Shown in pieces: positions 2,489-51,130 of a stretch of 55,700 nucleotides of DNA. This stretch comes from Patescibacteria group bacterium (GTDB taxonomy: Bacteria > Patescibacteriota > Minisyncoccia > 2-02-FULL-40-12 > IGHO2-01-FULL-4-A). Location: NCBI GenBank assembly GCA_038064915.1, contig JBBTSB010000002.1, positions 1-55,700 of the forward strand, written 5' to 3'. Numbering within the stretch: the first letter of the stretch is position 1; every line of letters begins with the position of its first letter. Position numbers and translations under genes: made by a program. The notes beneath the pieces are model-generated. The model made no database searches, was not told the DNA's origin, and saw only the letters and a program-made list of their open reading frames with translations.

Positions 2489-2537
2489 CCCCCGACGATG
2501 TGAATCCAGGGTGACTGGAAGGCACGATCGTCGGGGG
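2489..2537 (-). terminator. GC-rich hairpin downstream of orphan 2550-3296
   Basis: Perfect 11-bp inverted repeat CCCCCGACGAT/ATCGTCGGGGG enclosing a second TCCAG/CTGGA stem; weak T-tract follows on the minus strand. Confidence 0.55.
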
Positions 2538-2549
2538 TGAAGAACGGTT

Positions 2550-3296
2550 CTAGTAGTTGTCCGACCTCTGCGGCCGGACTTGCGGGAGGCGCTTGGGCGA
2601 CCGCTCCGGAAGGAACGGGGGTGGAGTTGGAGTGGCGCGGAGACGACTGTCCCGCACCAAATCCTCGATCTTCCACTTGAGATTCCGCACCTCTCGCTGG
2701 ACGTCGCGAAGGGGGTCGGGCGTCGGGGTGGCGAAAGCACGGCGGGTGGGCTTCTTGGCCTTCGCCTTCGCCATGGCCGGCTTCGCAGGCACGGGCCCAG
2801 AGACGGTGGGCGTGGACTCCGGCGTGATGGCTGGGGCGGAAGCCACCCGGGCCGCCATCATCACCTGGGCCACCTGCTTTGCCCAGGGGCTCGTCGCGTA
2901 GTGGTAGCCCCGAAGGTTGGTCAGAACCGAGATCGCCCGCTGGCGCTTGGTTTCCAGCGATGCGTCCGCCTTCTCCGTCCAGTCCATGACCTCGCCAGCG
3001 AGTCTCGCGTACTCGACCTCCTCGAAGTTGTGGCTCATGTTCCATACATCCGAGGATTGCCCGAGATACCAGTTGAGCCGGTCCGCAATATTGCCAGCGA
3101 GGAGCTTTGCTTCAGGGGTTCCAAGACGGGCCTGCCACTGGTAGGCCTGCTCGAGCCGGGCGATATCCTCGTCGTCCTTCCAGTGTGAAGCGAGTTCGGG
3201 AAGCGCCGGCGGGACCGTGCTCTGATCCCGGAAGATGAGCAGCCCGAGGAGGAGGACGTTGATCGCGACGAGACCACCGATAAGCCACTTGGTCAT
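2550..3296 (-). CDS. Hypothetical membrane-anchored protein, GC-rich orphan
   Basis: 248 aa, N-terminal hydrophobic helix, Pro/Thr/Lys-rich linker, GGAGG SD 4 nt before ATG, own promoter. Confidence 0.75.
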   Translation of the reverse strand: MTKWLIGGLVAINVLLLGLLIFRDQSTVPPALPELASHWKDDEDIARLEQAYQWQARLGTPEAKLLAGNIADRLNWYLGQSSDVWNMSHNFEEVEYARLAGEVMDWTEKADASLETKRQRAISVLTNLRGYHYATSPWAKQVAQVMMAARVASAPAITPESTPTVSGPVPAKPAMAKAKAKKPTRRAFATPTPDPLRDVQREVRNLKWKIEDLVRDSRLRATPTPPPFLPERSPKRLPQVRPQRSDNY

Positions 3297-3371
3297 AACA
3301 CCTCCGAAAAGAGAAAAACGGAAACTGTCGTGGGGGCGGGATTGCCTTCCACGTGAATCTAAACCTGCTAT

Positions 3372-3399
3372 ATTATAACAGAAAATAAAGTATTGTCAA
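3372..3399 (-). promoter_or_regulatory. Consensus sigma70 promoter TTGACA-N16-TATAAT with extended -10 (TGn)
   Basis: Perfect -35 and -10 hexamers on the minus strand upstream of orphan 2550-3296. Confidence 0.75.
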
Positions 3400-3442
3400 A
3401 TGCCACGTAGACTTTTTCGAGATTTTGCGGTACGGTATACAG

Positions 3443-4828
3443 ATGCCAAAGCGTTTTACCATCGTCAACGCCATACCGTACGTCAACGCCAACGCTCACA
3501 TTGGTTTTGCTTTAGAATTGATTTTGTCTGATACTCTAGCGCGATATCATCGCCTGCAGGGTGAAGAAGTGCGATACACCACCGGCACCGATGAAAATTC
3601 CCTCAAAAATGTCCAAGCCGCAGAAAAGGCTGGCAAGCCGGTAGCGGATTTTGTAGCCGAGCATGCGGAGGTATTCAGGAAATTAAATACAACACTCAAT
3701 ATTTCCGCTGATGAGTTTATTCGTACTACCGAAGAGCGCCACATCATCGGCGTTCACAAAATCTGGAAGGCCTGTGATGCTACTGGGGATATTTACAAAA
3801 AGAAATACCAGGGACTCTACTGTGTGGGCTGTGAGGTGTTTTATACACAAAAAGATTTAGTCGATGGCCTCTGCCCGGAACACAAAACTAAACCCGAGCT
3901 TATCGAAGAAGAAAACTATTTTTTCAGACTCTCTAACTATCAAGATTGGTTGTTGCAAATTATTGAATCTGATGAGCTCAAAATCACACCAAGCTCACGC
4001 AAAAGCGAACTGACCGAATTTATAAAATCCGGTCTTGAGGATTTCAGTATCTCCCGGTCGAATGACCGGGCAAAAAATTGGGGAATTACGGTGCCTGGCG
4101 ATGACGAGCAAAAAATTTACGTCTGGTTTGATGCGCTGACAAATTATGTAAATGCAGTAGGGGTTGTGTGGTGGAATGATAGTTATCGCGCACACATGAT
4201 TGGAAAGGGCATTAGCAGGTTTCATGCGATCTACTGGCCCGCGATACTCAAATCCGCCGGACTTGCGACTCCCAACGAAATCTTTATTCACGGCTACGTG
4301 ACGGTAGACGGCGAGAAAATTTCAAAGTCGCTGGGCAATGTCGTGGACCCCTTTGAAGTGGTAGAAAAATATGGCGTTGATGCAGTGCGGTATTTTTTAC
4401 TTCGCGAAATCCCTTCGACAGGGGATGGAGATTTTTCCATTGCCAAACTCGAAGCTCGCTACAACGGCGATCTAGCAAATAACTTGGGAAATCTGGTAAG
4501 CCGCGTGGGAAAACTTTCAGAAAAACTCATATCGAAGGAAATTGATCCGGCCATTACGAAACAACTTGAAACGACCACTACCAAATATCACGAAGCTATC
4601 AAGACCTTTAAACTCCATGAAGCACTAGCGCATCTTTGGGAACTCTATACGTTTGCGAATGTGTACATGAATGAGAAGGCACCGTGGAAAACAGGTGATG
4701 CCCAGGCAGTTGCCAGTATTTCCCATCTTCTCCAGGAAAGCACCGCGCTCCTTGAACCCTTCCTTCCGGAAACCGCCCAAAAGATCCGAAGCAATACTCC
4801 GGGACCTCTCTTTCCCAAACTTCTCTAA
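3443..4828 (+). CDS. metG: Methionyl-tRNA synthetase (short form)
   Basis: AIPYVNANAHIGF (HIGH), TGTDENSLK, CVGCE..CPEH knuckle, IYVWFDALTNY, KISKSLGN (KMSKS); 461 aa. Confidence 0.97.
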   Translation: MPKRFTIVNAIPYVNANAHIGFALELILSDTLARYHRLQGEEVRYTTGTDENSLKNVQAAEKAGKPVADFVAEHAEVFRKLNTTLNISADEFIRTTEERHIIGVHKIWKACDATGDIYKKKYQGLYCVGCEVFYTQKDLVDGLCPEHKTKPELIEEENYFFRLSNYQDWLLQIIESDELKITPSSRKSELTEFIKSGLEDFSISRSNDRAKNWGITVPGDDEQKIYVWFDALTNYVNAVGVVWWNDSYRAHMIGKGISRFHAIYWPAILKSAGLATPNEIFIHGYVTVDGEKISKSLGNVVDPFEVVEKYGVDAVRYFLLREIPSTGDGDFSIAKLEARYNGDLANNLGNLVSRVGKLSEKLISKEIDPAITKQLETTTTKYHEAIKTFKLHEALAHLWELYTFANVYMNEKAPWKTGDAQAVASISHLLQESTALLEPFLPETAQKIRSNTPGPLFPKLL

Positions 4829-5748
4829 TGGAACCCAACAGCACACTGTTTGCCATATTTTGTATCGTCGTGGTTGGATTTTTGGTCGCTGATCTGGGCT
4901 ACTTCAACCGCAAGGCCCACAAGATATCGCTCTCCTCGGCCGTCATACAAACGGTTTTTTGGATCGCCGTATCACTTATCTTTGCCGCGCTGATCTTTTT
5001 TTGGATCGACCAGAAAACTGCCACGGAATTCCTTACCGCCTACGTCACCGAAAAAATGCTTTCCGTCGACAATCTGTTTGTCATCCTCCTGATTTTCAAC
5101 TTTTTCCGCATATCGGAACGCTACTACCACCGGGTTCTTTTTTGGGGCATCATGGGAGCCATTGTTTTTCGTGGCATATTCATAGGAGCCGGCGCGATTC
5201 TCGTAAGCAACTTCCACTGGATCCTCTACATCTTCGGGGCGATCCTCATCTACACGGGAATCAAATTGCTTTTTGACAAAAAAGAGGAACATGCGGATTT
5301 TAGCGATCATGGCGTCCTGCGGTTTGCAAAAAAGTTTTTTTCTTTCACTACCGACGACCACGGAGGAAAGTTTTTTGTCCGTAAACAAGGAAAGATTCAC
5401 GCCACCTTACTGTTCATGGTCATTTTGCTTGTCGAGGCGACGGACATCGTATTTGCTGTGGACTCCATACCGGCTGCGTTTGCAATCTCGCAGGATCCGT
5501 TTGTCGTTTTTACCTCAAATATTTTTGCTATCATGGGATTGCGGGCACTGTTTTTTGTCATCGAAAAAGTCGTCCACCGCTTCCACCACTTACAAAAGGG
5601 TTTGTCGTTTATCTTGGTGTTCATTGGGGTCAAGATGCTCGCGGGAATATTTGATATCCACCTTTCTTCGATGATTTCGTTTGCCATCATCATGTCCGCT
5701 TTAGCCATCTCGCTTATTATGTCTATTCTATTACCGAAAAAAATATAA
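4828..5748 (+). CDS. TerC/Alx family membrane protein
   Basis: EKMLSVDNLFV, RVLFWGIMGAIVFR, DIVFAVDSIPAAFAI, FTSNIFAIMGLRALFF. Confidence 0.92.
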   Translation: MEPNSTLFAIFCIVVVGFLVADLGYFNRKAHKISLSSAVIQTVFWIAVSLIFAALIFFWIDQKTATEFLTAYVTEKMLSVDNLFVILLIFNFFRISERYYHRVLFWGIMGAIVFRGIFIGAGAILVSNFHWILYIFGAILIYTGIKLLFDKKEEHADFSDHGVLRFAKKFFSFTTDDHGGKFFVRKQGKIHATLLFMVILLVEATDIVFAVDSIPAAFAISQDPFVVFTSNIFAIMGLRALFFVIEKVVHRFHHLQKGLSFILVFIGVKMLAGIFDIHLSSMISFAIIMSALAISLIMSILLPKKI

Positions 5749-5749
5749 C

Positions 5750-6556
5750 ATGCAATTTATCGACATCCATTCACACGTCCAGTTCGTAGCGTACGAAGCT
5801 GACCGCGACGCGGTAATACTGCGTGCAAAAGAGGGGAACACCAAGATGATCAACGTCGGCACGCAAAAAGATACCTCAAAAGCTGCCGTGGAGCTCGCGC
5901 ACCAATATCCTGACATCGCATGGGCGACGATTGGGCTTCATCCCATACACACGAGCAAAAGCTTTCATGACAAAAAAGAGTTAGGCGATGAAGGCGAAGA
6001 TTTCACGTCACGTGGCGAAGTGTTTGATTATGATTATTACCTTGAATTAGGAAAAGATCCGAGAGTGGTAGGCATAGGGGAGTGCGGCTTGGATTACTAT
6101 CGACTAAATCACGAAACACGCAACATACAACATGAAACATTCAAAAAACATATAGAACTAGCACTGGAACTAGACAAGCCCCTAATGATCCATTGTCGTG
6201 ATGCATATGACGATTTGCTTGCAATGCTAGATTCGCGATCACGGGGAAACATTCATTTTTTTGCTGGAAGTTGGGATGTTGCCAGGCGTTTTCTCGATCT
6301 CGGCTTTACGCTTTCATTTACCGGGGTAATCACCTTTGCCGATCAGTACGATGAAGTTGTAAAAAACACACCGCTTGATATGATTCTCACAGAAACGGAT
6401 TCGCCCTACATCACTCCAGCGCCCCTCCGAGGCAAGCGCAATGAACCGGTGAATGTACAATACGTCGTCGCTCGCATTGCGGAATTAAAAGGCCTGCCGG
6501 TCGAACAAGTCAGCGAGCAAATTATGCAAAACGCAAAACGAGTTTTTGGAATATGA
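5750..6556 (+). CDS. tatD: TatD family hydrolase/DNase
   Basis: DIHSH, GLHP, VGIGECGLDY, IHCRDA, ETDSPYITP..RGKRNEP. Confidence 0.93.
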   Translation: MQFIDIHSHVQFVAYEADRDAVILRAKEGNTKMINVGTQKDTSKAAVELAHQYPDIAWATIGLHPIHTSKSFHDKKELGDEGEDFTSRGEVFDYDYYLELGKDPRVVGIGECGLDYYRLNHETRNIQHETFKKHIELALELDKPLMIHCRDAYDDLLAMLDSRSRGNIHFFAGSWDVARRFLDLGFTLSFTGVITFADQYDEVVKNTPLDMILTETDSPYITPAPLRGKRNEPVNVQYVVARIAELKGLPVEQVSEQIMQNAKRVFGI

Positions 6557-6900
6557 AAAAAATTCTGAAAATAATTCTTACCATATTCATAATAGCGCCA
6601 ATAAGTTGGGTTATCTATGTGCTTGCATTTCAAGGCTTTCCTGATAATTATGATTTTTATCGTGATTGCAAAAAGGTTAAAGAGGGCATGACAAAACAAG
6701 AGATACAGATAATCTTGCAAAAATATATCAATGATTCAGAATTTGAAATAGAAGAGAAAAAACCAATAATAAATTATGGAGGGAAAATTATCTACGAGGA
6801 AGAGTGGGAATTGAGTACAGAAGGATTTGCAGATCGGTTGTTCTGTGGAGGATTTTTCAATGATAACATCCTCGTGAAAAAAACAATGACTTTTGATTAA
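6553..6900 (+). CDS. Hypothetical protein with N-terminal TM/signal segment (AT-rich)
   Basis: 115 aa ORF overlapping the tatD stop (ATGA); hydrophobic N-terminus. Confidence 0.7.
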   Translation: MKKILKIILTIFIIAPISWVIYVLAFQGFPDNYDFYRDCKKVKEGMTKQEIQIILQKYINDSEFEIEEKKPIINYGGKIIYEEEWELSTEGFADRLFCGGFFNDNILVKKTMTFD

Positions 6901-6903
6901 CAA

Positions 6904-7469: not shown

Positions 7470-7475
7470 GATGCT

Positions 7476-7503: not shown

Positions 7504-7509
7504 TACATT

Positions 7510-8088: not shown

Positions 8089-8090
8089 CG

Positions 8091-21928: not shown

Positions 21929-22717
21929 ATGGCCAGAGAAAAACCCAAAATCAAAGCCGGAACCGTGGAACTCGGAGAAATGCTTGGTCATGGTCTTGAA
22001 AAAGCAGTATATGAAAACAAAAATAACCCTGATCAAATAATCGGGATTTATCTGAAAGGATGGAAACGAAAACCTGAAGTTACTAAAGCTCGATACTATC
22101 TGACGAACATACTTCATATGCTCTATCCTAAGTGGTTTTATACGATCCATCAGGTAGGGCATGAACAATTGTATAAGAAAGGTACGCAAAAAACTGCAAA
22201 TTATTTTATCGCAGATAAGATGGTGCTCGGGGAAGATCATAAAAGAATGGAGGAACTTGGGTATTTGGGAGATGAAAATGAAAAAAAAGAAATCGACAAA
22301 CGCTTACGTTCAGATCCTCAATATCTTGATTTCATTCAGGAAATGGAACGCATCGGAATGATGGTAGGCCATACGACACCAGGAGGAGTTGAATCAACCA
22401 CCGGAAATTTTTCAAAAGATCCTGAAGGAAACCTTCAGTATGTTGACACCATCGATCCTTTTTTTGATCACGGCCGCTTGGTATGGGATGAGTTAGAGCT
22501 TGCATTCAGCCCAATCAAGCTCAAAACTCGCATCATGGAAAAACTTTCAGGCCATGAGCAAGTTCAAGCCTTGGCATATCTCGATAGAATTCTTGTTCTA
22601 AAAAATGAACTGCAAGAAAAATTAATTCAAGAAAAGCAAAAACAAGAAATAGAGGTTAATCGTAGAAATCAAAAAAATCTGGAAGAAGTACGAAAAATGC
22701 GAAAACCAAAAAAGTGA
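21929..22717 (+). CDS. Hypothetical protein with weak kinase-like motifs
   Basis: 262 aa; LGHGLEKAVY and GNF.KD..GNLQYVD. Confidence 0.6.
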   Translation: MAREKPKIKAGTVELGEMLGHGLEKAVYENKNNPDQIIGIYLKGWKRKPEVTKARYYLTNILHMLYPKWFYTIHQVGHEQLYKKGTQKTANYFIADKMVLGEDHKRMEELGYLGDENEKKEIDKRLRSDPQYLDFIQEMERIGMMVGHTTPGGVESTTGNFSKDPEGNLQYVDTIDPFFDHGRLVWDELELAFSPIKLKTRIMEKLSGHEQVQALAYLDRILVLKNELQEKLIQEKQKQEIEVNRRNQKNLEEVRKMRKPKK

Positions 22718-24844: not shown

Positions 24845-24873
24845 TTTACACGAATCAATAAGCACGCTATAAT
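24845..24873 (+). promoter_or_regulatory. Promoter TTTACA-N17-TATAAT (predicted leaderless) with palindrome ACGCTA-TAA-TAGCGT over the -10
   Basis: The -10 ends 7 nt before ATG 24881. Confidence 0.7.
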
Positions 24874-24880
24874 AGCGTAC

Positions 24881-25306
24881 ATGGATAGAAAAACATTAAC
24901 TATCCTTGGGGCATCGTTATATGCTTGCGTGGGTACCAAAGCACGGAGAGATTTTCGATCAAAAAATCGATATATTTATTCGATGGAGTTAACAAATTCA
25001 GATCCAAACATAATCAGAAGTTTCTCGACTTTCATGAAAGAGATCATCAGAGCCGACTGGAAGCGAGTAAGAGGACAGTTATTTTTTTATCCTGACTTGG
25101 ACGAGAATAAGCTAAAAGCGATTTGGTCTGAAGCGTCTGGTATTCCTATGGATCAGTTTCAAAAATCGATTTGTTTGAAACAAAAAACAGGAAAGTTTAA
25201 AGCAAATCCTTTAGGAACATTTAAAATTAGATATTCCTGTAAAGAGCATTTCTTAAAGCTACAGGAAATGATTGATAATTTGTGGAGAGGTCGCATAGTG
25301 GCCTAG
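24881..25306 (+). CDS. LAGLIDADG-like (homing endonuclease fold) protein of the CPR tRNA-associated type
   Basis: LGASLYACVGTK helix, ELTNSDPNIIRSF..F, KAIWSEASGIP, GTFKIRY; the last codons are encoded by the tRNA 5' end. Confidence 0.6.
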   Translation: MDRKTLTILGASLYACVGTKARRDFRSKNRYIYSMELTNSDPNIIRSFSTFMKEIIRADWKRVRGQLFFYPDLDENKLKAIWSEASGIPMDQFQKSICLKQKTGKFKANPLGTFKIRYSCKEHFLKLQEMIDNLWRGRIVA

Positions 25307-25373
25307 TGCGCCGCCTTGGAAAGGCGGTATACTCGAAAGGGTATCGAGGGTTCAAATCCCTCCCTCTCCGCCA
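25284..25373 (+). tRNA. tRNA-Ser(GGA)
   Basis: GGAGAGG/CCTCTCC acceptor, anticodon arm CCGCC-TT-GGA-AA-GGCGG, long variable arm, encoded CCA. Confidence 0.96.
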
Positions 25374-25416: not shown

Positions 25417-25980
25417 ATGGAAAAAGAAAATCTTAAAAACTCATTGTCTAAAAAACGAAGGGTAAGCCTAATGGTTTTGTTTTTGCTGGTAGTAATCATT
25501 TCCACTTCTTATATTACATCCTATGTAATAAAACAGGGTCATAAGTTTGATCTACTTTATCAGTACGAAGTCATACCCGACATTGAACTAAAAAATACCC
25601 TACTTGAAACACAAAATGGCCTAATCGGGGAGATACGCGGTTTTGTAAAATTTGATAATGTTGCAGATCAGCCATCAAATTCGCGACAATATTATATTCT
25701 TCAGACGCTCAACAAATTTGACGAGAATTCACATCAGCATTTCTCACTGGAGGAAGTAATAAAGATGCAATATCTTTCGCCAAGAAGTTTGGGTGTCTCG
25801 GAATTAGTTGAAGTAAGTAAAACTGGCAACACTATAACGTTGGAAGATGAAAACGGAAATAAGTTTTTTATTGATAAATTAACCAAATACGTCTCGATGC
25901 GAGATACTAACGGAGACAGTGCTTCATTGATTACAGATGATGGTGGCTACAGAGATTTCGTTGAAGGATGGTTAAAATAA
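25417..25980 (+). CDS. Hypothetical single-TM protein (AT-rich) at the tRNA 3' end
   Basis: 187 aa; basic N-terminus then a hydrophobic helix. Confidence 0.72.
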   Translation: MEKENLKNSLSKKRRVSLMVLFLLVVIISTSYITSYVIKQGHKFDLLYQYEVIPDIELKNTLLETQNGLIGEIRGFVKFDNVADQPSNSRQYYILQTLNKFDENSHQHFSLEEVIKMQYLSPRSLGVSELVEVSKTGNTITLEDENGNKFFIDKLTKYVSMRDTNGDSASLITDDGGYRDFVEGWLK

Positions 25981-32244: not shown

Positions 32245-32263
32245 CCATCATATAATACGTTAC

Positions 32264-37049: not shown

Positions 37050-37072
37050 GTTTAAGAGTTTAAAAGTTTAAG
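37041..37072. repeat. 7-8 nt tandem repeat (core AGTTT) x4 at the carA/carB junction
   Basis: AAGTTTC AAGTTTA AGAGTTTA AAAGTTTA AG spans the carA stop and carB start. Confidence 0.7.
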
Positions 37073-38032
37073 GAAATGATCAAATAGCCATCTTGTGTCT
37101 GTCGGGCCTGGGTGGGATTCGGGATGGAACTGAACCGAGAAGAATGGCTTTGTTTTGTGAGCAACACCCTCTACAGAACTATCATTGAGATTTCTAAAAT
37201 TCACGTACCAGTCACTGGGAAGTGTTTTCTCATCTACCGCATATCCATGATTCTGCGATGTGATAAAACATTTTCCATCATCCATTTGAACAGGTTGGTT
37301 ATGCCCGCGATGGCCGAATTTCAACTTGTACGTCTTCGCCTCTGCTGCAAGACCCATAATCTGGCTTCCCAAACAAATGCCCATCACTGGGATATTTTTC
37401 TTGAAAACCTTCTTTAATATTGCAATGGTCTCTGTGTAATCCGCAGGATCGCCAGGACCGTTTGAAAGAAACACGCCCGCAAAATCTTCTTGAGAGTAGT
37501 CATAATCTCTCGGCACGCGCTTAATCTGAAACGGCAATTTCATCAACTCGCGCAAAATATTCATCTTCATCCCGCAGTCTACTAAGATAATTGTTTTTTT
37601 AAATTGCGTATTATATGAAATAGGCTTTGGAATAGAAACAAAAGGAATATCTCCCGAACTTCCTTTTACTAACATAGTTCCTTTGGACCGGAGGTATTTT
37701 GTCAGCGCTCTCGTGTCGACTCCGGTCATGAGTGGTACGTTTTGATCTTGAAGCCACTTCGCAAACGATTCACTCGCTGTGCTGGTCACAACTCCAGTTG
37801 CATGAATTTTCGTGGACTCCCAAGTTTCTTTTGGCGAAACACCGTAATTACCGATCAGCGGATAGGTAAACACCAAAATCTGCCCGGAGTAACTTGGATC
37901 CGTGAGCGACTCCACATATCCCGTCATGCCTGTGCTAAAGACAACTTCACCAAAAAAAATGCCCCTATTGGGGCGAGGAGTCTCTCCTTGAAATCTAGTT
38001 CCATCTTCGAGAATGAGGTTGGATGTATGCAA
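37052..38032 (-). CDS. carA: Carbamoyl-phosphate synthase small subunit
   Basis: LILEDG, GEVVFSTGMTGYVESLTDPSY, SNGPGDP, GICLGSQ, TSQNHGYAV, QFHPESHPGP; TTG start inferred. Confidence 0.95.
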   Translation of the reverse strand: MHTSNLILEDGTRFQGETPRPNRGIFFGEVVFSTGMTGYVESLTDPSYSGQILVFTYPLIGNYGVSPKETWESTKIHATGVVTSTASESFAKWLQDQNVPLMTGVDTRALTKYLRSKGTMLVKGSSGDIPFVSIPKPISYNTQFKKTIILVDCGMKMNILRELMKLPFQIKRVPRDYDYSQEDFAGVFLSNGPGDPADYTETIAILKKVFKKNIPVMGICLGSQIMGLAAEAKTYKLKFGHRGHNQPVQMDDGKCFITSQNHGYAVDEKTLPSDWYVNFRNLNDSSVEGVAHKTKPFFSVQFHPESHPGPTDTRWLFDHFLKLLNS

Positions 38033-38124
38033 ACTTACAGAAGGATACCAAATTGCTATCCGCAAGGCAAGCAAGTCTTGCGAAGAAAGAAGCAGGTGAG
38101 GTATGGTATTGGTGGAGGTGCCAC

Positions 38125-38511
38125 ATGGCCGAGATGATGTCGCAACAGGCAAGAGGTCCGGGAACAGCCAACTACTGGAGCTTCATGGCCAGTGCGATGG
38201 CTCAACAGCTCCAAACGGCTGTGCATCACAAACGGATTGATGCCAACCAGTTTCCTTCGGGCATCCTCCGGGATGCGATCTGGTTCTGCGCAATCACGCT
38301 CGAATCGGATTCCGAGAGAAGACTCCAGCTCGAAGGTGCCACGGAGCTGGGCGAACGCGTCCTGGAGTCAGTCCATGGTGTTCGTGATCAGGTGGTTGCC
38401 CTCAAGGAGCTCCTGTCTAGTTGCTCCTCGCCTCGCATGCTGACCGCTCAAGAAGTCGAGGTGGCGATGTTCGGCTGCTGCTTTTTCAACGCACTCCGTG
38501 AAATGGAGTAG
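38125..38511 (+). CDS. Hypothetical GC-rich orphan between carA and pyrB
   Basis: 128 aa from the ATG preceded by GGAGGT; followed by hairpins. Confidence 0.65.
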   Translation: MAEMMSQQARGPGTANYWSFMASAMAQQLQTAVHHKRIDANQFPSGILRDAIWFCAITLESDSERRLQLEGATELGERVLESVHGVRDQVVALKELLSSCSSPRMLTAQEVEVAMFGCCFFNALREME

Positions 38512-38561
38512 CATGTACCTACCCGACAACGGCCGCTCTCCGTGAAAACGGATGGAGCACA

Positions 38562-38595
38562 GACGACCCGCCTAGAGGTCGTCGTTGCATTTTTA
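38562..38595 (+). terminator. Hairpin GACGACC/GGTCGTC plus T-rich tail
   Basis: 7-bp perfect stem followed by GTTGCATTTTT. Confidence 0.5.
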
Positions 38596-42227: not shown

Positions 42228-42656
42228 ATGGACTGGAAAATTATCGCAATCTTCGCTCCAACATTTTTCGTAGCCTACCAGGCCCTTTCGAAGTTACTAC
42301 CAAAAGATATCTCGGTATTCTTGGTCAATGCCTATGCGTCACTTATTGGTGCGGTGGTAATGATCATCTTGCACTTTTTATTTTCTGCACAAAAGGGTTT
42401 TGCGATCACCTCGAAATCCCTCTCAATAGCATTAGGTATCGGTCTCTTGATCAGCGGTGGAAATTTCATGATCATCAAAGCCTACTCGCTTGGTGCTCCG
42501 CAGACGCTATTCACTGCTATCTTCTATCCAGCACTCATCATTTATGCAACGCTGGTGGGACTTCTAATCTGGCATGAGAAATTGAATTTTCTTCAAGGCA
42601 TAGGGGTAGTACTATCAATCGTTGGGATTTTGATGATTTTCTATTTTAAAAAATAA
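42228..42656 (+). CDS. EamA/DMT family small transporter
   Basis: 142 aa, about 5 TM segments, GIGVVLSIVGI. Confidence 0.75.
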   Translation: MDWKIIAIFAPTFFVAYQALSKLLPKDISVFLVNAYASLIGAVVMIILHFLFSAQKGFAITSKSLSIALGIGLLISGGNFMIIKAYSLGAPQTLFTAIFYPALIIYATLVGLLIWHEKLNFLQGIGVVLSIVGILMIFYFKK

Positions 42657-42658
42657 GT

Positions 42659-43081
42659 ATGGACATTAAACTTTTCGTTGCGACTAAAGGATTCATCAAT
42701 TACAAAGGCAAAGTTTTGATTGTGCGGGAATCGGTGAAATACAAAGACGCTACAAACGTAGCGAAGTTCGATATAGTGGGCGGACGTATGGAAGTTGGGC
42801 AACGATTTGATGAGAGCCTGCTTCGTGAAGTCAAAGAGGAAACAGGATTGGAAGTAAAAATCGGCAAACCGTTTTTTGTAAACGAATGGCGACCGGTGGT
42901 GCGCGGCGAGCAGTGGCAAATTGTTGGCATCTTTTTTGAATGCACTACGGCTTCAGAAACGGTGACGTTGAGTCAGGATCATGACAAATTCGAATGGATC
43001 GATCCCAAAAAATACCAAGACTACCCCGTGATAGAAAATCTCTATCCGGCTTTTGAAGCATACCTCAATGGAATATCTTGA
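42659..43081 (+). CDS. Nudix hydrolase (MutT-like)
   Basis: GGRMEVGQRFDESLLREVKEETGL; LSQDHDKFEWI. Confidence 0.88.
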   Translation: MDIKLFVATKGFINYKGKVLIVRESVKYKDATNVAKFDIVGGRMEVGQRFDESLLREVKEETGLEVKIGKPFFVNEWRPVVRGEQWQIVGIFFECTTASETVTLSQDHDKFEWIDPKKYQDYPVIENLYPAFEAYLNGIS

Positions 43082-43568
43082 TGTTATTGATCAGCATAAC
43101 AAGGTCGTAGGCAAGGCTGCTAAGAATGAGATTTATGAAAAAAAGCTCCCCCACCGGATCGTGCACGTGTGGCTTTTTAATGATAGGGGGGAATTGGCCG
43201 TAGCAATGCGAGCTGCAGGAGTTTCATATAAACCCTTGCATTGGTGTTCCACAGCTGCTGGCCATGTTTCTGCAGGCGAATCCTTTCTCGATGCCGGATA
43301 CCGCGAACTCATGGAAGAGTGCAAAATCAAAACAGATCTCAAACTCAAAGATTCAGTCTGGTACGAGGGCGCCGATGCACCAGGCCTCAAAAAAATTCTC
43401 GGCCTCTGTGAGGGCTCTTACCAAACACCTATTGCCATTCGTAACGCAGAAGTTGACCGAGTAGAGTTTCTTTCAATCAATAAAATACAGAATCTTATCA
43501 AACACGGTGAGCCCATCCATCCGGAATTTTTATTTCTCTTCAATAAGCACTACCCCTCAATAACCTAA
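43068..43568 (+). CDS. Nudix hydrolase (IDI/YfcD-like)
   Basis: LPHRIVHVWLFN, AAGHVSAGES..AGYRELMEE. Confidence 0.85.
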   Translation: MEYLDVIDQHNKVVGKAAKNEIYEKKLPHRIVHVWLFNDRGELAVAMRAAGVSYKPLHWCSTAAGHVSAGESFLDAGYRELMEECKIKTDLKLKDSVWYEGADAPGLKKILGLCEGSYQTPIAIRNAEVDRVEFLSINKIQNLIKHGEPIHPEFLFLFNKHYPSIT

Positions 43569-43569
43569 A

Positions 43570-43600
43570 GCGCCCCGAGAAGCAGGATGCTCTAGGGCGC
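43570..43600. terminator. GC hairpin between convergent genes
   Basis: GCGCCC/GGGCGC outer stem with inner GAG/CTC and AGCA/TGCT pairing. Confidence 0.45.
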
Positions 43601-43623
43601 ACGGGAACTGCAGCAAAGCATGA

Positions 43624-43812
43624 TCACTTTTTCCTCCGTTTCGTTTTGATCGAGATCTTCTTACGCGGCTTTTTGCGATCAAGCCTCTTCACAGAAGACT
43701 CGAACTTCTTGATCTCGGTGAGTGTCGTGCAGAGACAGTCATTGAGGAAACCACCGCACTTTCCACACTCCCCGATGACGAGCTCCATGATATCCTGGCG
43801 ACTTTCGGGCAT
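43624..43812 (-). CDS. Small Cys-containing basic orphan
   Basis: 62 aa, CGKC..CLC, Lys/Arg tail; GGAGG SD and TTGATC-N17-TAGGGT promoter upstream. Confidence 0.6.
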   Translation of the reverse strand: MPESRQDIMELVIGECGKCGGFLNDCLCTTLTEIKKFESSVKRLDRKKPRKKISIKTKRRKK

Positions 43813-43868
43813 CGTTCCTCCCTCTCTTTCGGCTTTACCCTAGCACCAAAAGTCGTTATGATCAATTG

Positions 43869-44705
43869 GTGGTCAGAACTACTGAAACCCCCGCATTGTT
43901 CGAGCAAACTCCTATCCGGCGAGTTTGGGATGAAAAAGAGGAGAAGTGGTGGTTTTCGGTTGTGGATGTGGTAGGGATTTTGGCAGAAAGTGCCGATGCG
44001 AGAAAATACTGGAATAAGCTAGCCCAAAGACTACGAGAAGAAGGGAGTGAAGTGGTGACAAAATGTCACCAGTTGAAATTATTAGCAGCGGATGGGAAAA
44101 TGCGCCTTACTGACGTAGCAGAAACACAAACCCTCTTCCGAATTATCCAAAGCATACCATCTCCCAAAGCCGAACCTTTTAAGCTTTGGCTGGCCAAAGT
44201 CGGGTACGAGCGGATCAAGGAAACTGCCGATCCCCAAATAGCAGTTGACCGTGCGCGAAAACACTGGAAAAAGATGGGTAGATCGGAAAAATGGATTGAG
44301 ATGCGGATGCGTGGAATCGAATTGCGCAATAAACTCACTGATTATTGGAATGAGAGTGGCGTCAAAGAAGGTAAAGAATATGCCATACTGACAGACATCA
44401 TCCACCAGGAATGGAGCGAACTGACTACGAAGCAACATAAACATCTCAAAGGGTTGCAGGCTCAAAATCTTCGAGACCATATGGATGATGCCGAGTTGAT
44501 CTTTACTGCGTTGGCAGAACTTTCGACAAATCAAATTGCTAAAAGCGACGAGGCAAAGGGTTTTGATGAAAACACCATGTCAGCCCACAAAGGCGGCCGT
44601 ATTTCCGGCAATGCCCGCAAAGCTCTGGAGAACCAAACCGGCAAAAAAGTCGTGAGCGGAGAAAATTTCCTACCTCCAAAGAAGAAGATTAAACGTCTTA
44701 CTTGA
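43869..44705 (+). CDS. Bro-N domain (phage antirepressor-like) protein
   Basis: IRRVWDE..EKWWFSVVDVV, RIIQSIPSPKAEPFKLWLA.VG.ERI.E; TTTACC-N17-TATGAT just upstream of the GTG. Confidence 0.88.
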   Translation: MVRTTETPALFEQTPIRRVWDEKEEKWWFSVVDVVGILAESADARKYWNKLAQRLREEGSEVVTKCHQLKLLAADGKMRLTDVAETQTLFRIIQSIPSPKAEPFKLWLAKVGYERIKETADPQIAVDRARKHWKKMGRSEKWIEMRMRGIELRNKLTDYWNESGVKEGKEYAILTDIIHQEWSELTTKQHKHLKGLQAQNLRDHMDDAELIFTALAELSTNQIAKSDEAKGFDENTMSAHKGGRISGNARKALENQTGKKVVSGENFLPPKKKIKRLT

Positions 44706-44707
44706 AT

Positions 44708-45520
44708 ATGCAACAACAAACAAAAACAATCATTCGGTGGATCTTGGCGCCTATTATAGGTTACGGGATCGCGTTTATCGTGGCTGTTGGTTTTGTTTTT
44801 GGTAGTATTTTTGGTGTCATTCCCATGTTGGATTCCGTCAACGGATTATTTTTGATCTTGGCTTTCGCGAGCACCTTTGCTTCGGTGATCGTGGGCTCAC
44901 TCATTGCGCCATCACATAAAACACAGACTGCTCTTGCGCTTTCCCTAGGTCTACCTCTGGTCAGTTTTCTGATTAACCGAGACTTTCAATCAATGTTTTG
45001 GGTAAACGCAGGCGGGATGGTAGCGGGGGGACTATTCGCAACACTTCTGACTTGGCTTTGGACAAAACCTAATCGTACACAACAAACGCACAAAGTTATA
45101 GTCATAGTTTGTACACTTGTTTTTGTTGCGGGCGGTGGGATACTTTTTGCACGCCTCATGGATTACCCGGCAAAACCAGACTCTACGCCCGGGACCTTGT
45201 CATGGTACCCAGTCTCTGCTTTCTATTCATATCGATTGGCCGGTTTTATCGATGAAACCAATTTCTGGCGCTTCGAGGCAAACAAAGAAACTATACAAAA
45301 AATTGCAGTAGACTCCCGCTTTGAACAAACGACTGATGTACCAGATGATTTCTTTTACTATCGACCTTACTGGTGGCCCAAGAAATTGCCACAAAACTAT
45401 CTAGCATTCAAATCTCCCGAATTTTCTTTTGATGTTCGTCCTGGAGACGGCGATTACTATTTCCTCGTCTACGATCAAGATCTCCAACGAGCTTATGTTT
45501 GGGTAGATGATAATTTCTAG
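44708..45520 (+). CDS. Hypothetical multi-TM protein with C-terminal soluble domain
   Basis: About 5 TM segments followed by an aromatic-rich domain. Confidence 0.72.
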   Translation: MQQQTKTIIRWILAPIIGYGIAFIVAVGFVFGSIFGVIPMLDSVNGLFLILAFASTFASVIVGSLIAPSHKTQTALALSLGLPLVSFLINRDFQSMFWVNAGGMVAGGLFATLLTWLWTKPNRTQQTHKVIVIVCTLVFVAGGGILFARLMDYPAKPDSTPGTLSWYPVSAFYSYRLAGFIDETNFWRFEANKETIQKIAVDSRFEQTTDVPDDFFYYRPYWWPKKLPQNYLAFKSPEFSFDVRPGDGDYYFLVYDQDLQRAYVWVDDNF

Positions 45521-46326: not shown

Positions 46327-47191
46327 TCTCGCAGCGCTCGCTGCTTTATTTTTTGTTGGTGGGACTAATGCAAGTAGTAGTTTGTTTAGTGATGGATTTG
46401 AGTCAGATGATTTTTCAAACTGGACGTCGTCGGAAGTACCATGGACAGTCAATGGCACTAGCAGTATTAGTGCGCATATGGGCATAAAGCGGGCAACGGC
46501 AGAGGGCTTGACGGCAGAAGGTTCAGAAATTGGCTCCATCACCAAAATGCTGTCAACGGCTGGCTTTGAAAACATCTCACTATCTTACTGGTATCGAATA
46601 AAAGAAAATATGGAAACTGGTGATCATGTATGGGTCCAGTGGAGTACCGATGGAAATACATGGAACCAAATTGCAGATCACACTGGAACAGCAACGACTT
46701 CATTTCAATTTGCCAGCTTGGCGCTTCCTTCAGATGCAAATAACCTTGTTGATTTTCAATTCCGGTTTTATGCAAGCTTGGGAAATTCCGGCGATGACTT
46801 CTGGCTCGATGATGTGGAGCTAACGGGCGATGCGATTGCGACTCCGACGCCAACATCGACCCCGACGCCCACTCCGACTCTGGAACCAACTCCTACGCCT
46901 ACCTTGGAGCCAATCCCGACAGTAACTCCAACACCAGAGCCCAGTATCGAGCCCACCCCAACGCCTTCACCTACTCCTGAAATTACTCCAACACCTGAAC
47001 CGACTCCCACTCCAACTCCAGAGCCTACTCCGACTCCAACACCTACCCCGGAACCAACTCTAGAGCCCACTCCCGAGCCGACTGCTCATCTTGATCCTGA
47101 TCCGATCCTCGACGAATCAAATCCCGCCAATGAAAATGCTCTGACACATATCCTCCGCAACATTGCACGGTGGATTGAAAAACATGTATAA
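46301..47191 (+). CDS. Secreted protein: jelly-roll/lectin-like beta domain plus Pro-Thr stalk
   Basis: Signal peptide MKKLIV...[24 protein letters not shown], long PT/PE repeat. Confidence 0.78.
46841..47082 (+). repeat. Low-complexity (Pro-Thr/Glu) coding repeats
   Basis: [20 protein letters not shown]...; codons are diverged between units. Confidence 0.9.
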
Positions 47192-47200
47192 TAGCATCAT

Positions 47201-47707: not shown

Positions 47708-47708
47708 T

Positions 47709-50700
47709 CTACACCAGTGCGGTAACCGACTTCACATCATCACACAAAAGTTTGGGGACTCCATCGCGGTCGTTGAGTTTGCCGCTCACCACGACGATGT
47801 TGTTTTCCACAAAGGCATTCGGATACTGATCGAGTACCGTAGGGAAGACCACAAGCTCAATTTTTGATGTTATGTCTTCAATCCAGGTAAACAACATCGG
47901 CTTGCCGGTTTTGGTGACGATTTTTTGAACCTTGATAACCAGTCCGCTTACATGGACGGATGAAGTCGATTTCTTTTGTACGACATCACGAATAGATGAC
48001 GTGCCGTTTGCGTAATCTCGCAACGGATGGTCCGTAATGAAAAGGCCAAGAAGCTCCTTTTCCCAGAGGAGTTTTTCAAAGCGCCGTGCCGGAGAGACTT
48101 CCTTGAGTCGAAGTGCGGGAAGAACAACAACATCCCCTCCAAACAAACTTGATTGCCCCATACTAGACTGTCGTTGATGTTCGCGGGCATGAGTGAGCAA
48201 CTCATCTACGCTTGCCAGAAGCGCCGTTCGTTCACCACACACATCCAGGGCACCACATTTAATGAGACTTTCGAGAGATTTTTTGTTGAGATCCTTGCTT
48301 TGCACTCGCTGAACGACATTTTCCGCCGTAGTAAAAGGACCATTGGCCAGACGCTCTTTGATAATCGCATCGACAACATTGATGCCAACATTTTTTATGG
48401 CAGCTAGCCCGAATCGAATCTTATTCTCTCCGGGTATAACAGTAAATCCAGCCATACTCTCATTGATTTGTGGTGGTAGCACTTCGATATCCATCGTCCG
48501 ACATTCATCAATCAAAAATGCCACGCGCTCAATATCACCGGAATCAGAATTCATAAGCGCCGCCATGAATTCAATCGGATAATTGCCTTTCAAGTATGCC
48601 GTCTGATACGCAAGCATCGCATAGCATGCCGCATGGGAACGATTAAATGCATAGCGATTGAATGGTTCTACGAGTTCCCAAAATTTATCGGCGATAGCCT
48701 TGGGAGTTCCCACCTTTTCTGCTCCCGATTTAAATTTCTCTTCCTGCTCATCAAGTAGTTTTTTGATTTTTTTACCTACGGCTCTTCGCAAAACATCCGC
48801 TTCCGAAGGAGTAAAGCCCGCCAATACCTGAACAGCTTGGATCAGCTGTTCCTGGTAGACCATAATGCCATAGGTGTTTTTGAGTACCGGTTCTAGGTTC
48901 GGATGGAGATAGGTGATAGCTTTCTTGCCGTGTTTGCGATCTATATACTCGGGAATGAGCTCCATCGGACCTGGACGGTACAAGGAGACCATGGCGATAA
49001 TGTCTTCTATCTCCGTGGGCTTGAGATTTTTGAGGTAGCGTTTCATGCCGCTGGATTCAAGCTGGAATACACCCGTCGTCTGTGCTTTTTTGAAAACCTG
49101 AAAAGCTTTTTTGTCATCCAGAGGAATTTCATCAATATTGATTTTTATGCCGTGGTTTTGCTCGATGATTTTGAGAGCATTTTGAATGATCGTAAGGTTG
49201 GCAAGTCCCAAAAAATCCATTTTTAAAAGACCGAGATCTTCAATGGCATGCATTTCATACTGGGTGATTATGTCATTCTCTTTTGTGCCACGCTGGAGGG
49301 GAACATACTCGGTCAGCGGTTTTGGCGTGATCACCACGGCACAAGCATGCGTTGAGGAGTGTCGTGCCACGCCTTCCAGTGACATGGCCGCGTCGATGAG
49401 TTTCCTGACGTCTTGATTCGTATGGTAGAGTTGTTTGAGCTCATCAACATCCTCAATGCAGCGTTTCAGGTAGCCAGATTTTTCTCCTTGTTGAGGATTG
49501 ACGGGAATAAGCTTTGCCACACGATCACAAAGGTCATAGGAATATCCAAGAGCGCGCCCCGCATCGCGAATGCCTCCACGGGCTGCCATGGTACCAAAGG
49601 TAATAATTTGCGCAAAATGATCTTTTCCGTATTTTTCACGAACATACTGAAACACTTCATCGCGGCGTGCATCGTCAAAGTCGATATCGATATCTGGCTG
49701 ACTCACCCGAGCAGGATTGAGAAAACGTTCAAAGAGGAGATTATATTTAATGGGGTCGACGTTGGTAATGTTCAAGAGGTAGGTAATCAAACTTCCCGCA
49801 GCTGAACCTCGGCCTGGACCCACAATGATGCCTTGCTGCTTCGCCCAATTTACAAAATCTTGCACAATCAAGAAGTATGATGCAAATCCGGTGGTTTTGA
49901 TGACATCGAGCTCGTAATTCAGACGTGTGCGAATCTCATCACTGATATCCGTTCCATATCGACGCACCAAGCCTTGTGAAGCAAGTTCGGTGAGATAGCT
50001 ATTGGCATCGTGTCCGGACGGAAGGGGAAATTCTGGAAGCTGGATAGTTCCCAACGGGATTTCCACATTGCAACGATCAGCAATGCGAGCAGTATTTTCT
50101 ATTGCTTCGGGAACATCAGAAAATTTTTCTTCTATCTGCTGAGCTGAGGAAATAGAGAAATCCCCCTGTCGCATAGAGAAACGATCTTTTTCATCAAGGT
50201 TATTTCCCGTCTGGACTGCAAGGAGCACTTCATGCGCATGTCCGTCTTCAGTACGCAAATAATGCGCATCCGCCGTTACAACCAGCGGAATCCCCGTATC
50301 CCGAGCGAGGGCGATCAATTTTGGAGTTACGGTATTTTGATCTTCGATATTTTGGTGACGTTGCAACTCTATAAAAAAATTCCCTTTCCCAAACATTTCC
50401 TGGTACTGCATAGCAATCTGTCTGGCTTTCCCGTCGTTTCCAGACAGCAATGCTCGGGAGATTTCTCCTCCCAAACATGCCGAGAGAGCAATGAGTCCTT
50501 CTGTATGCCGTGCTAAAAGATTTTTATCGATGCGCGGCTTGTAGTAAAACCCGTCCAGATGTGCCGCCGTGGTGAGCTTAATGAGGTTTTTGTATCCTGT
50601 TGTGTTTTCGGCAAGAAGAATGAGATGATAGTAGTTCTTTCCATCAGCACCGGGGCGTTTATCATACATGTTGTCCGCCACGTACGCTTCAATACCAATG

Positions 50701-50885
50701 ATCGGCTTGATGCCGGCCTTTATGGCCTTCTGATAAAACTCGATCGCACCATACAGTACTCCATGATCCGTGATCGCGATCGCATCCATGCCGAGTTCTT
50801 TGGTACGTGCGATCAGGTCATCAATTTTTGAGAGCCCATCGAGGAGGGAATAGTGAGTATGGTTGTGGAGATGCACAAAACGCAT
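47709..50885 (-). CDS. dnaE: DNA polymerase III alpha subunit
   Basis: FVHLHNHTHYSLLDG, GPGRGSAAGS, PDIDIDFD, KMDFLGL, GVFQLES, YAFNRSHA; no intein. Confidence 0.98.
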   Translation of the reverse strand: MRFVHLHNHTHYSLLDGLSKIDDLIARTKELGMDAIAITDHGVLYGAIEFYQKAIKAGIKPIIGIEAYVADNMYDKRPGADGKNYYHLILLAENTTGYKNLIKLTTAAHLDGFYYKPRIDKNLLARHTEGLIALSACLGGEISRALLSGNDGKARQIAMQYQEMFGKGNFFIELQRHQNIEDQNTVTPKLIALARDTGIPLVVTADAHYLRTEDGHAHEVLLAVQTGNNLDEKDRFSMRQGDFSISSAQQIEEKFSDVPEAIENTARIADRCNVEIPLGTIQLPEFPLPSGHDANSYLTELASQGLVRRYGTDISDEIRTRLNYELDVIKTTGFASYFLIVQDFVNWAKQQGIIVGPGRGSAAGSLITYLLNITNVDPIKYNLLFERFLNPARVSQPDIDIDFDDARRDEVFQYVREKYGKDHFAQIITFGTMAARGGIRDAGRALGYSYDLCDRVAKLIPVNPQQGEKSGYLKRCIEDVDELKQLYHTNQDVRKLIDAAMSLEGVARHSSTHACAVVITPKPLTEYVPLQRGTKENDIITQYEMHAIEDLGLLKMDFLGLANLTIIQNALKIIEQNHGIKINIDEIPLDDKKAFQVFKKAQTTGVFQLESSGMKRYLKNLKPTEIEDIIAMVSLYRPGPMELIPEYIDRKHGKKAITYLHPNLEPVLKNTYGIMVYQEQLIQAVQVLAGFTPSEADVLRRAVGKKIKKLLDEQEEKFKSGAEKVGTPKAIADKFWELVEPFNRYAFNRSHAACYAMLAYQTAYLKGNYPIEFMAALMNSDSGDIERVAFLIDECRTMDIEVLPPQINESMAGFTVIPGENKIRFGLAAIKNVGINVVDAIIKERLANGPFTTAENVVQRVQSKDLNKKSLESLIKCGALDVCGERTALLASVDELLTHAREHQRQSSMGQSSLFGGDVVVLPALRLKEVSPARRFEKLLWEKELLGLFITDHPLRDYANGTSSIRDVVQKKSTSSVHVSGLVIKVQKIVTKTGKPMLFTWIEDITSKIELVVFPTVLDQYPNAFVENNIVVVSGKLNDRDGVPKLLCDDVKSVTALV

Positions 50886-50992
50886 GCATCATCTTAGCAC
50901 TGTAAGAATTGATCAGCAACTTCGTTAATTACAAACTGTGCTGTAATGTTTGTCAATCTCTTTTCGTCTTATATAGCCAGAGGGAGGAATTC

Positions 50993-51097
50993 ATGAGAAG
51001 AATCCGCCAAGCCATTCAGCTCCTCCGTACCCAGCGCAACACGCCCGCGATTCGCCGCAGAGTCGCCCTGCTGTACCTCGAGGCAAAGCGCAAGTAG
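50993..51097 (+). CDS. Small basic orphan peptide (34 aa)
   Basis: GAGGGAGG SD 5 nt before ATG; MRRIRQAIQLLRTQRNTPAIRRRVALLYLEAKRK; hairpin follows. Confidence 0.5.
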   Translation: MRRIRQAIQLLRTQRNTPAIRRRVALLYLEAKRK

Positions 51098-51103
51098 CAC
51101 CCC

Positions 51104-51130
51104 GAGCCACCGCCTCCCCAGGCGTGGCTC
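51104..51130 (+). terminator. GC hairpin GAGCCAC..GCCT/AGGC..GTGGCTC
   Basis: Immediately after the 34-aa ORF; no strong T-tract. Confidence 0.4.

Follow-up and report, generated by a model that had tools for sequence, protein, structure and literature searches.

Genes without recognisable relatives (ORFans) and horizontally transferred genes are usually A+T-richer than the genome that hosts them. A gene led by a Shine-Dalgarno (SD) motif can also stand out in a genome that is mostly free of such motifs, as rpsU does in Flavobacteriia. The genomes of the candidate phyla radiation (CPR, Patescibacteria) are thought to be streamlined, and the hosts of these organisms are mostly unknown. Here we analyzed the terminal 55.7 kb (hereafter, the window) of the 163,264-bp contig ERZ1292627 (ENA) from the Hainich groundwater well H51, which represents a member of the Paceibacteria (Parcubacteria, CPR) with ~47% G+C, and focused on four orphan open reading frames (ORF1 to ORF4) located in the gaps between infB and metG, carA and pyrB, a Nudix and a Bro-N gene, and dnaE and an extracytoplasmic function (ECF) sigma factor gene. 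All four are SD-led and, against the usual trend, G+C-richer than their host. They probably represent four independent, recent horizontal acquisitions from G+C-richer, SD-using sources that were kept in insertion-tolerant gaps (rough probability, 0.58).

Translation starts and codon composition

The ORFs occupy positions 2550-3296 (minus strand; ORF1, 248 aa), 38125-38511 (plus strand; ORF2, 128 aa), 43624-43812 (minus strand; ORF3, 62 aa) and 50993-51097 (plus strand; ORF4, 34 aa). An initial annotation of the sequence had described them as self-contained units, each with GGAGG 4-6 nt before the start, a sigma70-like promoter and a G+C-rich hairpin after the stop, placed between conserved genes whose own starts mostly lack SD motifs. 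The ORFs, the spacing of GGAGG from the ATG, the hairpins and the named flanking genes were recovered at all four sites, whereas the promoter held for ORF1 and fell below the scan threshold for ORF2 to ORF4. The SD motif reads GGAGGTG in ORF1 (3299-3305, 4 nt before the ATG) and ORF2 (38114-38120), and GGAGG within AGAGGGAGGAA in ORF3 (43817-43821) and ORF4 (50983-50987). Its predicted duplex with the anti-SD tail CACCUCCUUU reached -13.3, -12.9, -11.9 and -11.9 kcal/mol, respectively, compared with a mean of -1.9 kcal/mol (standard deviation 2.6, best -8.7) for the host set, which comprised the 59 protein genes in the window with gene calls and Pfam labels from public assemblies. Such an SD motif was found in 4 of 4 orphans and 0 of 59 host genes (Fisher's test, P = 1.7e-6), and SD use is clearly not uniform across the window. 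Across 3,820 nt of intergenic DNA, GGAGG-N4-6-ATG was observed five times against 0.32 expected (P(>=4) = 0.0005); these five are the four ORFs and one antisense occurrence inside ORF4.

Host genes appear to start differently. A -10-like hexamer (TAnnnT with at least 4 of 6 matches to TATAAT) lies 4-14 nt before the start of 19 of the 23 unit-leading host genes, compared with 7 and 5 of 23 in upstream control windows, and TATAAT itself is present 7-8 nt before hyp141, a metallophosphatase gene and a TIG-domain gene. Most of the remaining host genes overlap or abut the preceding gene. Given that the -10 box is so close to the unit-leading starts, and that overlap with the preceding gene suggests translational coupling of later genes, the resident genes would be expressed from leaderless or very short-leader mRNAs combined with such coupling. 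The orphans, by comparison, have leaders of ~15-70 nt with a canonical SD. Leaderless-type host starts were seen throughout the window (e.g., 24865-24880, 32248-32263 and 47185-47200).

We further examined the 16S 3' end in relatives whose copy falls inside the examined locus. The anti-SD (CACCUCCUUUC / GGAUCACCUCCUUUC) is kept in L010 and L092, which share 66-67% DnaE identity with the window, while of the more distant relatives L025 has CAUCUCCUUUC instead, and L129 and L075 no longer have the motif. Moreover, infB of two relatives (L176 and L177) is preceded by GGGAGGTG, indicating that SD is natively used by some genes of the group. Judged from the 16S ends and infB genes of these relatives, the SD motifs of the four ORFs are probably readable by the host ribosome.

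The codon comparison proposed in the initial annotation pointed in the same direction. The G+C content at third codon positions (GC3) was 0.81, 0.67, 0.68 and 0.77 in ORF1 to ORF4, while host genes had a mean of 0.48 (standard deviation 0.06) and a maximum of 0.59, so that every one of the four exceeds all host genes. As the ORFs were picked for SD and orphan status and not for composition, this anomaly provides independent support. ORF1 (G+C 0.65) has values of 0.65, 0.48 and 0.81 at the first, second and third codon positions (GC1, GC2 and GC3), which by the general trends of codon-position G+C fits a gene from a genome of ~65% G+C. All four ORFs follow the order GC3 > GC1 >= GC2 that is expected of coding sequence.

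This order bears on whether the shortest ORFs are genes at all. ORF4, and perhaps ORF3, could be chance frames in inserts that are non-coding, structured and G+C-rich, either small RNAs or relics of foreign DNA, in which GGAGG is a leftover. Both are short (34 and 62 codons) and uncalled in public assemblies, G+C-rich DNA has few stop codons, the ORF4 region folds well (z = -3.2), and a G+C-rich uncalled stretch of ~500 bp just outside the window indicates that such DNA enters the genome. On the other side, the coding order in 4 of 4 ORFs would have a chance of about (1/6)^4 in non-coding DNA, the ATG stands at an ideal distance from a perfect SD where 0.32 such cases are expected in all intergenic DNA, and ORF1 and ORF2, at 248 and 128 codons, are too long for chance frames. 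No Rfam family matched any of the four gaps, apart from one miRNA match attributable to chance. We regard chance frames as quite unlikely.

Database searches returned little beyond the ORFs themselves. Compared with 5.8e9 clustered proteins and, by HMMER, with the full set of 1.84e9 representatives, ORF1 matched only itself, and ORF2 had only a self-match in the 5.8e9 clusters. None of the four matched Pfam, PHROGs, NCBIfam or PADLOC (PHROG matches appeared only at E > 0.05); ORF1, ORF2 and ORF3 had no match among PDB sequences and no relatives in IMG/VR, and ORF1 had none among GenBank phages or PLSDB plasmids. The idea that ORF1 is merely a wrong frame of some known gene was rejected, since the other long frames of the region had no Pfam match. 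Single-sequence AlphaFold models were poor (predicted local distance difference test, 46 for ORF1 and 54 for ORF2). The combination of GC3-rich codons and the lack of homologues for ORF1 and ORF2 in these large libraries suggests a foreign origin.

The four sites in related genomes

The DnaE of the window is 76% identical to that of Patescibacteria MAG (metagenome-assembled genome) H51-bin006_1 from the same well, and 64-69% identical to those of MAGs labelled Yanofskybacteria, Paceibacteria or Parcubacteria. The nearest syntenic relative is L014 (DnaE 76% identical), and five infB relatives served as comparators for the metG|infB gap: L178 (79%), L177 (78%), L176 (77%), L180 (75%) and L174. 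Window positions convert as window x = contig x + 107,142. The insert junctions are real DNA and not assembly error, because contigs from several runs and years span them: the arrangements metG-ORF1-infB, carA-ORF2-pyrB and dnaE-gap-ECF are unchanged in independent ENA and Logan assemblies. The ORF1 gene and both of its junctions recur in independent assemblies of 2018-2025, with contigs from runs dated 2018, 2021 and 2025 covering the junctions without differences; Logan contigs from three 2021 runs span carA-ORF2-pyrB, likewise without differences; and the dnaE|ECF gap is also 299 bp in an independent Logan contig. No insert-free allele of the ORF1 or ORF2 site was seen in four runs, although assembler contigs drop rare variants.

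Synteny, the check suggested in the initial annotation, showed the inserts to be lineage-specific. The sites of ORF1, ORF2 and ORF4 are empty in their closest syntenic relatives, where 32-98 bp separate the neighbouring genes. Between carA and pyrB, L014 has 32 bp and the window has 588 bp, and the dnaE|ECF gap is ~56 bp in L014, 98 bp in L009 and 299 bp in the window, with ORF4 absent from both relatives. To the right of the ORF4 insert, the -10 box and leader of the ECF gene (TATAGTAAGAAAA...TTTTCGTCT...ATGG) are conserved in L014 and L009. The metG|infB gap is empty in L178 (98 bp) and L177 (85 bp), and holds metK in L174. At the ORF3 site, pyrE and pyrF are adjacent in L014 and 3.3 kb apart in the window, separated by an island (42228-45520) that consists of an EamA gene, two Nudix genes, ORF3, the Bro-N gene and one further gene. 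Given that the other genes of this island have host-like GC3 and no SD, ORF3 appears as an outlier inside an older island.

The metG|infB gap is a re-used slot. It holds ORF1 in the window, three ORFs (145, 170 and 68 aa) in L176 and one (151 aa) in L180; the latter are also SD-led and closed by a canonical terminator, and their GC3 is 0.68-0.70 in L176 (genome, ~0.52) and 0.80 in L180 (genome, ~0.64). A strong promoter, TTGAC[A/T]-N16-18-TGnTATAATATA, stands at an equal position in all three loci. In the window it is promoter P of ORF1 (3372-3399, minus strand), a 12/12 match (TTGACA-16 nt-TATAAT) with a TG-extended -10 box (TTGACA-16-TGtTATAAT) and the sole perfect match in the 35 kb scanned. 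The alignment of the window with L176 (76% identity) runs from the metG coding sequence through this promoter and ends just past the -10 box. On the right of each slot terminator lies the conserved own promoter of infB, which in the window is found with a short leader at 2436-2475 (minus strand; GACTTTTTT...TATTGTAGACTTATTGAGCTTT-ATG), downstream of the ORF1 hairpin, and is kept in L180 and in the empty site of L178. ORF1 showed no similarity to the two larger L176 proteins, the only pairings compared. The 68-aa ORF of L176 (5631-5837) contains HxxxCxxC and weakly matches zf-HC2, an anti-sigma zinc finger, at a score below the Pfam cut-off (E = 0.0045). In the infB+metG tree, (WIN,(L176,L177)), L178, (L180,L174), where WIN is the window, the occupied state is scattered. 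As read from these alignments, the slot is old and its content has been replaced, and three lineages carry unrelated G+C-rich orphans behind a promoter whose position is conserved.

The same slot also bears on a native origin, in which the ORFs would be old resident genes that evolve very fast, for example surface proteins under diversifying selection, and have diverged beyond recognition, and in which SD and hairpin would be the normal build of stand-alone leadered genes in the clade. Lineages with only ~65% identity in infB+metG have kept promoter P and the slot, occupancy is scattered on the tree, and four of the five slot proteins (ORF1, the 145- and 170-aa proteins of L176 and the 151-aa protein of L180, but not the 68-aa protein of L176) share an N-terminal hydrophobic segment. 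Moreover, SD-led small units with a terminator, mostly of host-like GC3, are common in a pattern-based survey of related DNA (138 dereplicated loci, 2.08 Mb), and no donor was found. Long residents should nevertheless drift to host composition, while GC3 is 0.16-0.33 above that of the host in three lineages; the slot proteins compared retain no residual similarity; and the ORF2 and ORF4 sites of L014 (32 and ~56 bp) are too short for a gene. We consider such a native origin unlikely.

Transcription signals and delivery routes

Promoters were scanned in two stretches covering 35 kb of the window in all. Unlike promoter P, the candidate promoters of ORF2 (~8/12 matches by eye), ORF3 (~7/12 by eye) and ORF4 (a 14-nt spacer or a poor -10 box, by eye) remained below the threshold. 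The ~68-nt leader of ORF1 (3297-3365, minus strand) can fold so that the SD pairs with an upstream UUUCCG. This pairing could hide the ribosome-binding site, but the leader folds no better than its shuffles (z = -0.9). The hairpins after ORF1 and ORF4 are strong, and those after ORF2 and ORF3 are modest. The ORF1 hairpin (2478-2537, minus strand) consists of an 11-bp G+C stem and an inner stem-loop followed by CGUAUCGUUUU, with a short and offset U tract (-32.8 kcal/mol, z = -5.85; none of 200 shuffles reached this stability). ORF2 is followed by two hairpins (38535-38593, plus strand; z = -1.9), the second of which (38562-38583) precedes GTTGCATTTTT and has the only adjacent T run among the four that the scan accepted. 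The ORF3 hairpin (43570-43600, minus strand) pairs GCGCCC...GGGCGC ahead of UUUAGGUUAU (-22.7 kcal/mol, with a weak z of -1.4), and the ORF4 hairpin (51104-51130, plus strand; z = -3.2) has no U tract and abuts the conserved ECF promoter (TGTGGTATAGT), whose -10 box lies at 51149-51154 (plus strand).

Comparable units are common in related loci. In the survey of 138 loci, SD-led ORFs outside longer ORFs were followed by a terminator in 32% of cases, compared with 13% of those without SD, and look-alikes with a consensus promoter, AGGAGG, a small ORF that often encodes a membrane protein, and a terminator were found at L095:8632-8799, L074:18197-18676, L110:5617-5718, L091:15611-16021 and L098:10357-11004. 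Given how common SD-led terminator units are in these loci, the combination of leader, SD and terminator looks like the usual construction of small stand-alone genes in the clade and not like the mark of a vehicle. The GC3-rich share was 13.6% among SD-led and 8.3% among non-SD ORFs (P = 0.04). G+C-richness and absence from relatives probably mark the foreign subset.

The initial annotation had placed the four units in one class with a common source or delivery route, such as phage morons or retro-copied transcripts. A shared route is not supported. Sequence comparison revealed nothing in common among the four units beyond the SD core, no flanking direct repeats of at least 8 nt were found save one ATGAGGTT pair at the ORF2 site that is likely due to chance, and no other copies of the inserts occur in the window or in 182 related loci, in agreement with the lack of terminal repeats noted earlier. 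No integrase or reverse transcriptase adjoins the four ORFs, as had also been noted; the Pfam-labelled gene calls show no tyrosine recombinase, the window and the contig parts examined showed no reverse transcriptase, and a serine recombinase gene ending at window position 338 is unrelated to the four sites. Nor are the ORFs phage morons in the strict sense, with no prophage around them and no relatives in the phage and virus databases searched (IMG/VR for ORF1 to ORF3, GenBank phages for ORF1).

Some features could still fit a common mechanism, namely retro-copied, transcript-shaped cassettes or an unseen recombinase that places cassettes by promoters, as in an integron without integrase. The variable part of the metG|infB slot reaches from just past the -10 box of promoter P to the terminator, as a transcript would; a T(T/G)GAC(T) motif stands on both sides of it in the window, L176 and L180; the three ORFs of L176 lie in series like an array; and three of the four inserts stand just upstream of the promoter of the next gene, in the same direction. 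Against this, the four share neither a common sequence nor terminal repeats, the surroundings contain no gene for a reverse transcriptase or integrase and nothing like an attC core, poly(A) traces are absent, as is any duplication other than the -35 consensus, and neither presence/absence polymorphism nor an excision joint appeared in the runs at the ORF1 and ORF2 sites. The motif on both insert sides, T(T/G)GACT, was considered as a target duplication and rejected, because it is the -35 consensus of the two promoters and is expected anyway. We judge such a common mechanism highly improbable.

Separate acquisition of each ORF remains our preferred explanation; transfer, its direction and its source are what we infer from the sequence. 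Under it, each ORF would have arrived by its own horizontal transfer from a G+C-richer, SD-using gene pool, and inserts would persist in promoter-bearing gaps beside divergently transcribed genes, where a streamlined genome of overlapping operons tolerates insertion. A leadered, SD-dependent unit closed by a hairpin would be expressible whatever its context, and in the metG|infB gap such units would have been repeatedly exchanged under a positionally conserved promoter.

Several points weigh against this explanation. The closest relatives share just 76-79% identity in core proteins, a distance at which the ORFs may instead have been lost there, and the empty site of L177 resembles a deletion, with a conserved left segment also gone. 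Neither a donor nor a homologue was found for ORF1 and ORF2, even in metagenomes of the same aquifer, which is odd for a recent transfer that has not ameliorated. ORF3 and ORF4, both short, are absent from the gene calls of public assemblies, having been missed by gene finders, and expression of the four ORFs is predicted from their signals. In related loci, SD and high GC3 are only weakly associated (P = 0.10 without the window). The window carries no 16S gene, and the anti-SD of the host is judged via relatives; PMC9297842 reports the motif for only 48% of Parcubacteria, in line with the variation among L010, L092, L025, L129 and L075.

A broader and very unlikely extension of the transfer scenario is that strong promoters in divergent intergenic regions of Paceibacteria act as landing pads for transcript-length, foreign, G+C-rich units with no dedicated integrase. 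Such units might enter by natural transformation and recombination in conserved flanks or promoters, or by an RNA-mediated route. If true, these pads would give surface-attached symbionts a changing set of membrane and secreted proteins, with the metG|infB slot as the first example, and the G+C-rich codons might point to the host of the symbiont, or to mobile elements of that host, as the source.

Neighbouring genes and known systems

The products of the four ORFs might be of quite different kinds. ORF1, with an N-terminal hydrophobic anchor (residues ~4-22), a helical region and a tail rich in Pro, Thr, Ala and Lys, might be a membrane-anchored surface protein, and ORF2, predicted to be helical and Cys-containing, might be a cytoplasmic protein. 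ORF3, which is oriented antisense to its neighbours, contains a CxxC-x6-CxC cysteine cluster and a Lys/Arg-rich tail and might be a small zinc-binding protein whose basic tail possibly binds nucleic acid. ORF4 might be a basic peptide, likely helical (12 Arg/Lys, 1 Glu), encoded just upstream of the ECF sigma gene. The start of ORF2 in the ENA contig gene call is ATG 38023 instead of 38125; the G+C-rich stretch and strong SD begin near 38114-38125, and codons 38023-38124 have a GC3 of ~0.50 (by eye). Similarly, alignment with L014 places the start of carA (37052-38032, minus strand) at TTG 38032, with TATCCT 9 nt upstream, while the public call uses ATG 37927, which truncates the carbamoyl-phosphate synthase (CPSase) domain; the longest frame is also wrong, and the 588-bp carA|pyrB gap given above is counted from TTG 38032. 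A candidate pyrimidine attenuator (GCCCCAATAGGGGC-T8) upstream of the called carA start was discarded, since with the corrected start it is part of the carA coding sequence, where PRPNRGIFFGE is conserved.

In the pyrE-pyrF island, the Bro-N protein (43869-44705, plus strand) matched PDC-S13, a candidate defence family of PADLOC, along its whole length (E = 7.7e-126), and one of the two Nudix genes gave a weak match to PDC-S07. The only NCBIfam hit of the Bro-N protein, to DNA damage-inducible protein D, was far below threshold (18 bits, cut-off 242), and the protein had no match in IMG/VR. ORF3 is transcribed away from the PDC-S13 gene. The PDC-S13 and PDC-S07 matches, together with the absence of the 3.3-kb block from the closest relative, suggest that the block may be a small defence islet.

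A second island lies at the edge of the window. The large serine recombinase gene (Resolvase/Recombinase/Zn_ribbon_recom) that ends at position 338 (plus strand) overlaps a tRNA-Ser gene (271-357, opposite strand), and beyond it, in the contig DNA to the left of the window (L001:12959-20747), extends an A+T-rich block (G+C 0.36-0.38) with genes for a helix-turn-helix (HTH) protein, an N6_N4 methyltransferase, a DEAD/ResIII helicase and an SduA_C protein. Together, the recombinase and this block look like an integrated defence island at a tRNA cluster. The ~500-bp G+C-rich stretch with no called gene, mentioned above, lies between the recombinase and HTH genes (L001:14546-15047). Within the window, we also found a second kind of atypical gene, represented by four hypothetical genes with a GC3 of 0.31-0.35 and no SD (6553-6900, 21929-22717, 24881-25306 and 25417-25980); at least hyp262, hyp141 and hyp187 among them have no Pfam match, and two flank tRNA-Ser(GGA) (25284-25373). 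In addition, an uncalled 74-codon ATG ORF (52756-52980, plus strand) fills most of the 242-nt gap before nusB; the corresponding gap is larger in L009 and L014 (~585 bp), and a small conserved gene or RNA may be missed there.

If the four ORFs are recent imports, foreign genes in CPR genomes could be recognised by their translation start (SD leader versus leaderless or coupled) together with their composition, which is here, unusually, G+C-richer than that of the recipient, and their codon usage may hint at a donor that is possibly the physical host. The metG|infB slot offers a concrete, testable example of genes being replaced repeatedly while their promoter stays conserved. Moreover, ORF3 and ORF4 escaped the gene finders, and ORF2 and carA were given wrong starts, which shows that annotation tuned to one mode of initiation fails here.

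We finally compared the four loci with described systems. Like phage morons, they are single genes between conserved neighbours, absent from relatives, of atypical composition and with their own translation signal and hairpin, and ORF1 also has a strong promoter of its own; unlike morons, they neighbour core chromosomal genes (infB, metG, carA, pyrB and dnaE), with no prophage and no phage relatives in the databases searched, and three of the four lack a convincing promoter. Integron cassettes under the Pc promoter resemble the slot in that one or more unrelated, hairpin-ended ORFs lie behind a conserved promoter, three in series in L176, but no intI or attI is present, the ORFs have their own leaders, the sites are scattered and not arrayed, and no attC cores (RYYYAAC...GTTRRRY) were found by eye in the four hairpins. 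Insertion sequences and miniature inverted-repeat transposable elements differ in that the inserts have no terminal repeats, no target-site duplication and no further copies. As to retrogene-like inserts, the variable part of the slot spans approximately from transcription start to terminator; an A tail was not seen, nor was a reverse transcriptase in the window and the contig parts examined. Type I toxin-antitoxin systems differ as well, since ORF3 and ORF4 are strongly basic and not hydrophobic, and no Rfam antitoxin RNA matched. The four ORFs resemble rpsU of Flavobacteriia as few perfect-SD genes among nearly all SD-less ones; rpsU, in contrast, encodes a ribosomal protein, is conserved and has a regulatory role, whereas the SD genes here are unconserved and compositionally foreign.

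Flexible genomic islets, the replacement or additive islands that sit among core genes, share the most with these loci. Both have a fixed position with lineage-variable content, as in the metG|infB gap, and the four ORFs, absent from relatives at conserved positions, have the atypical GC3 and lack of vertical homologues that characterise acquired ORFans. They differ from such islets in that the units go down to one gene of 34-248 codons and in that the promoter of the slot is kept while the gene is swapped. Overall, the four loci are a variant of the known horizontally acquired ORFan islets. Two features are unusual: the orphans are G+C-rich and SD-led in a CPR genome that is poor in SD motifs and apparently leaderless, and one slot, anchored on a promoter, has been re-used.

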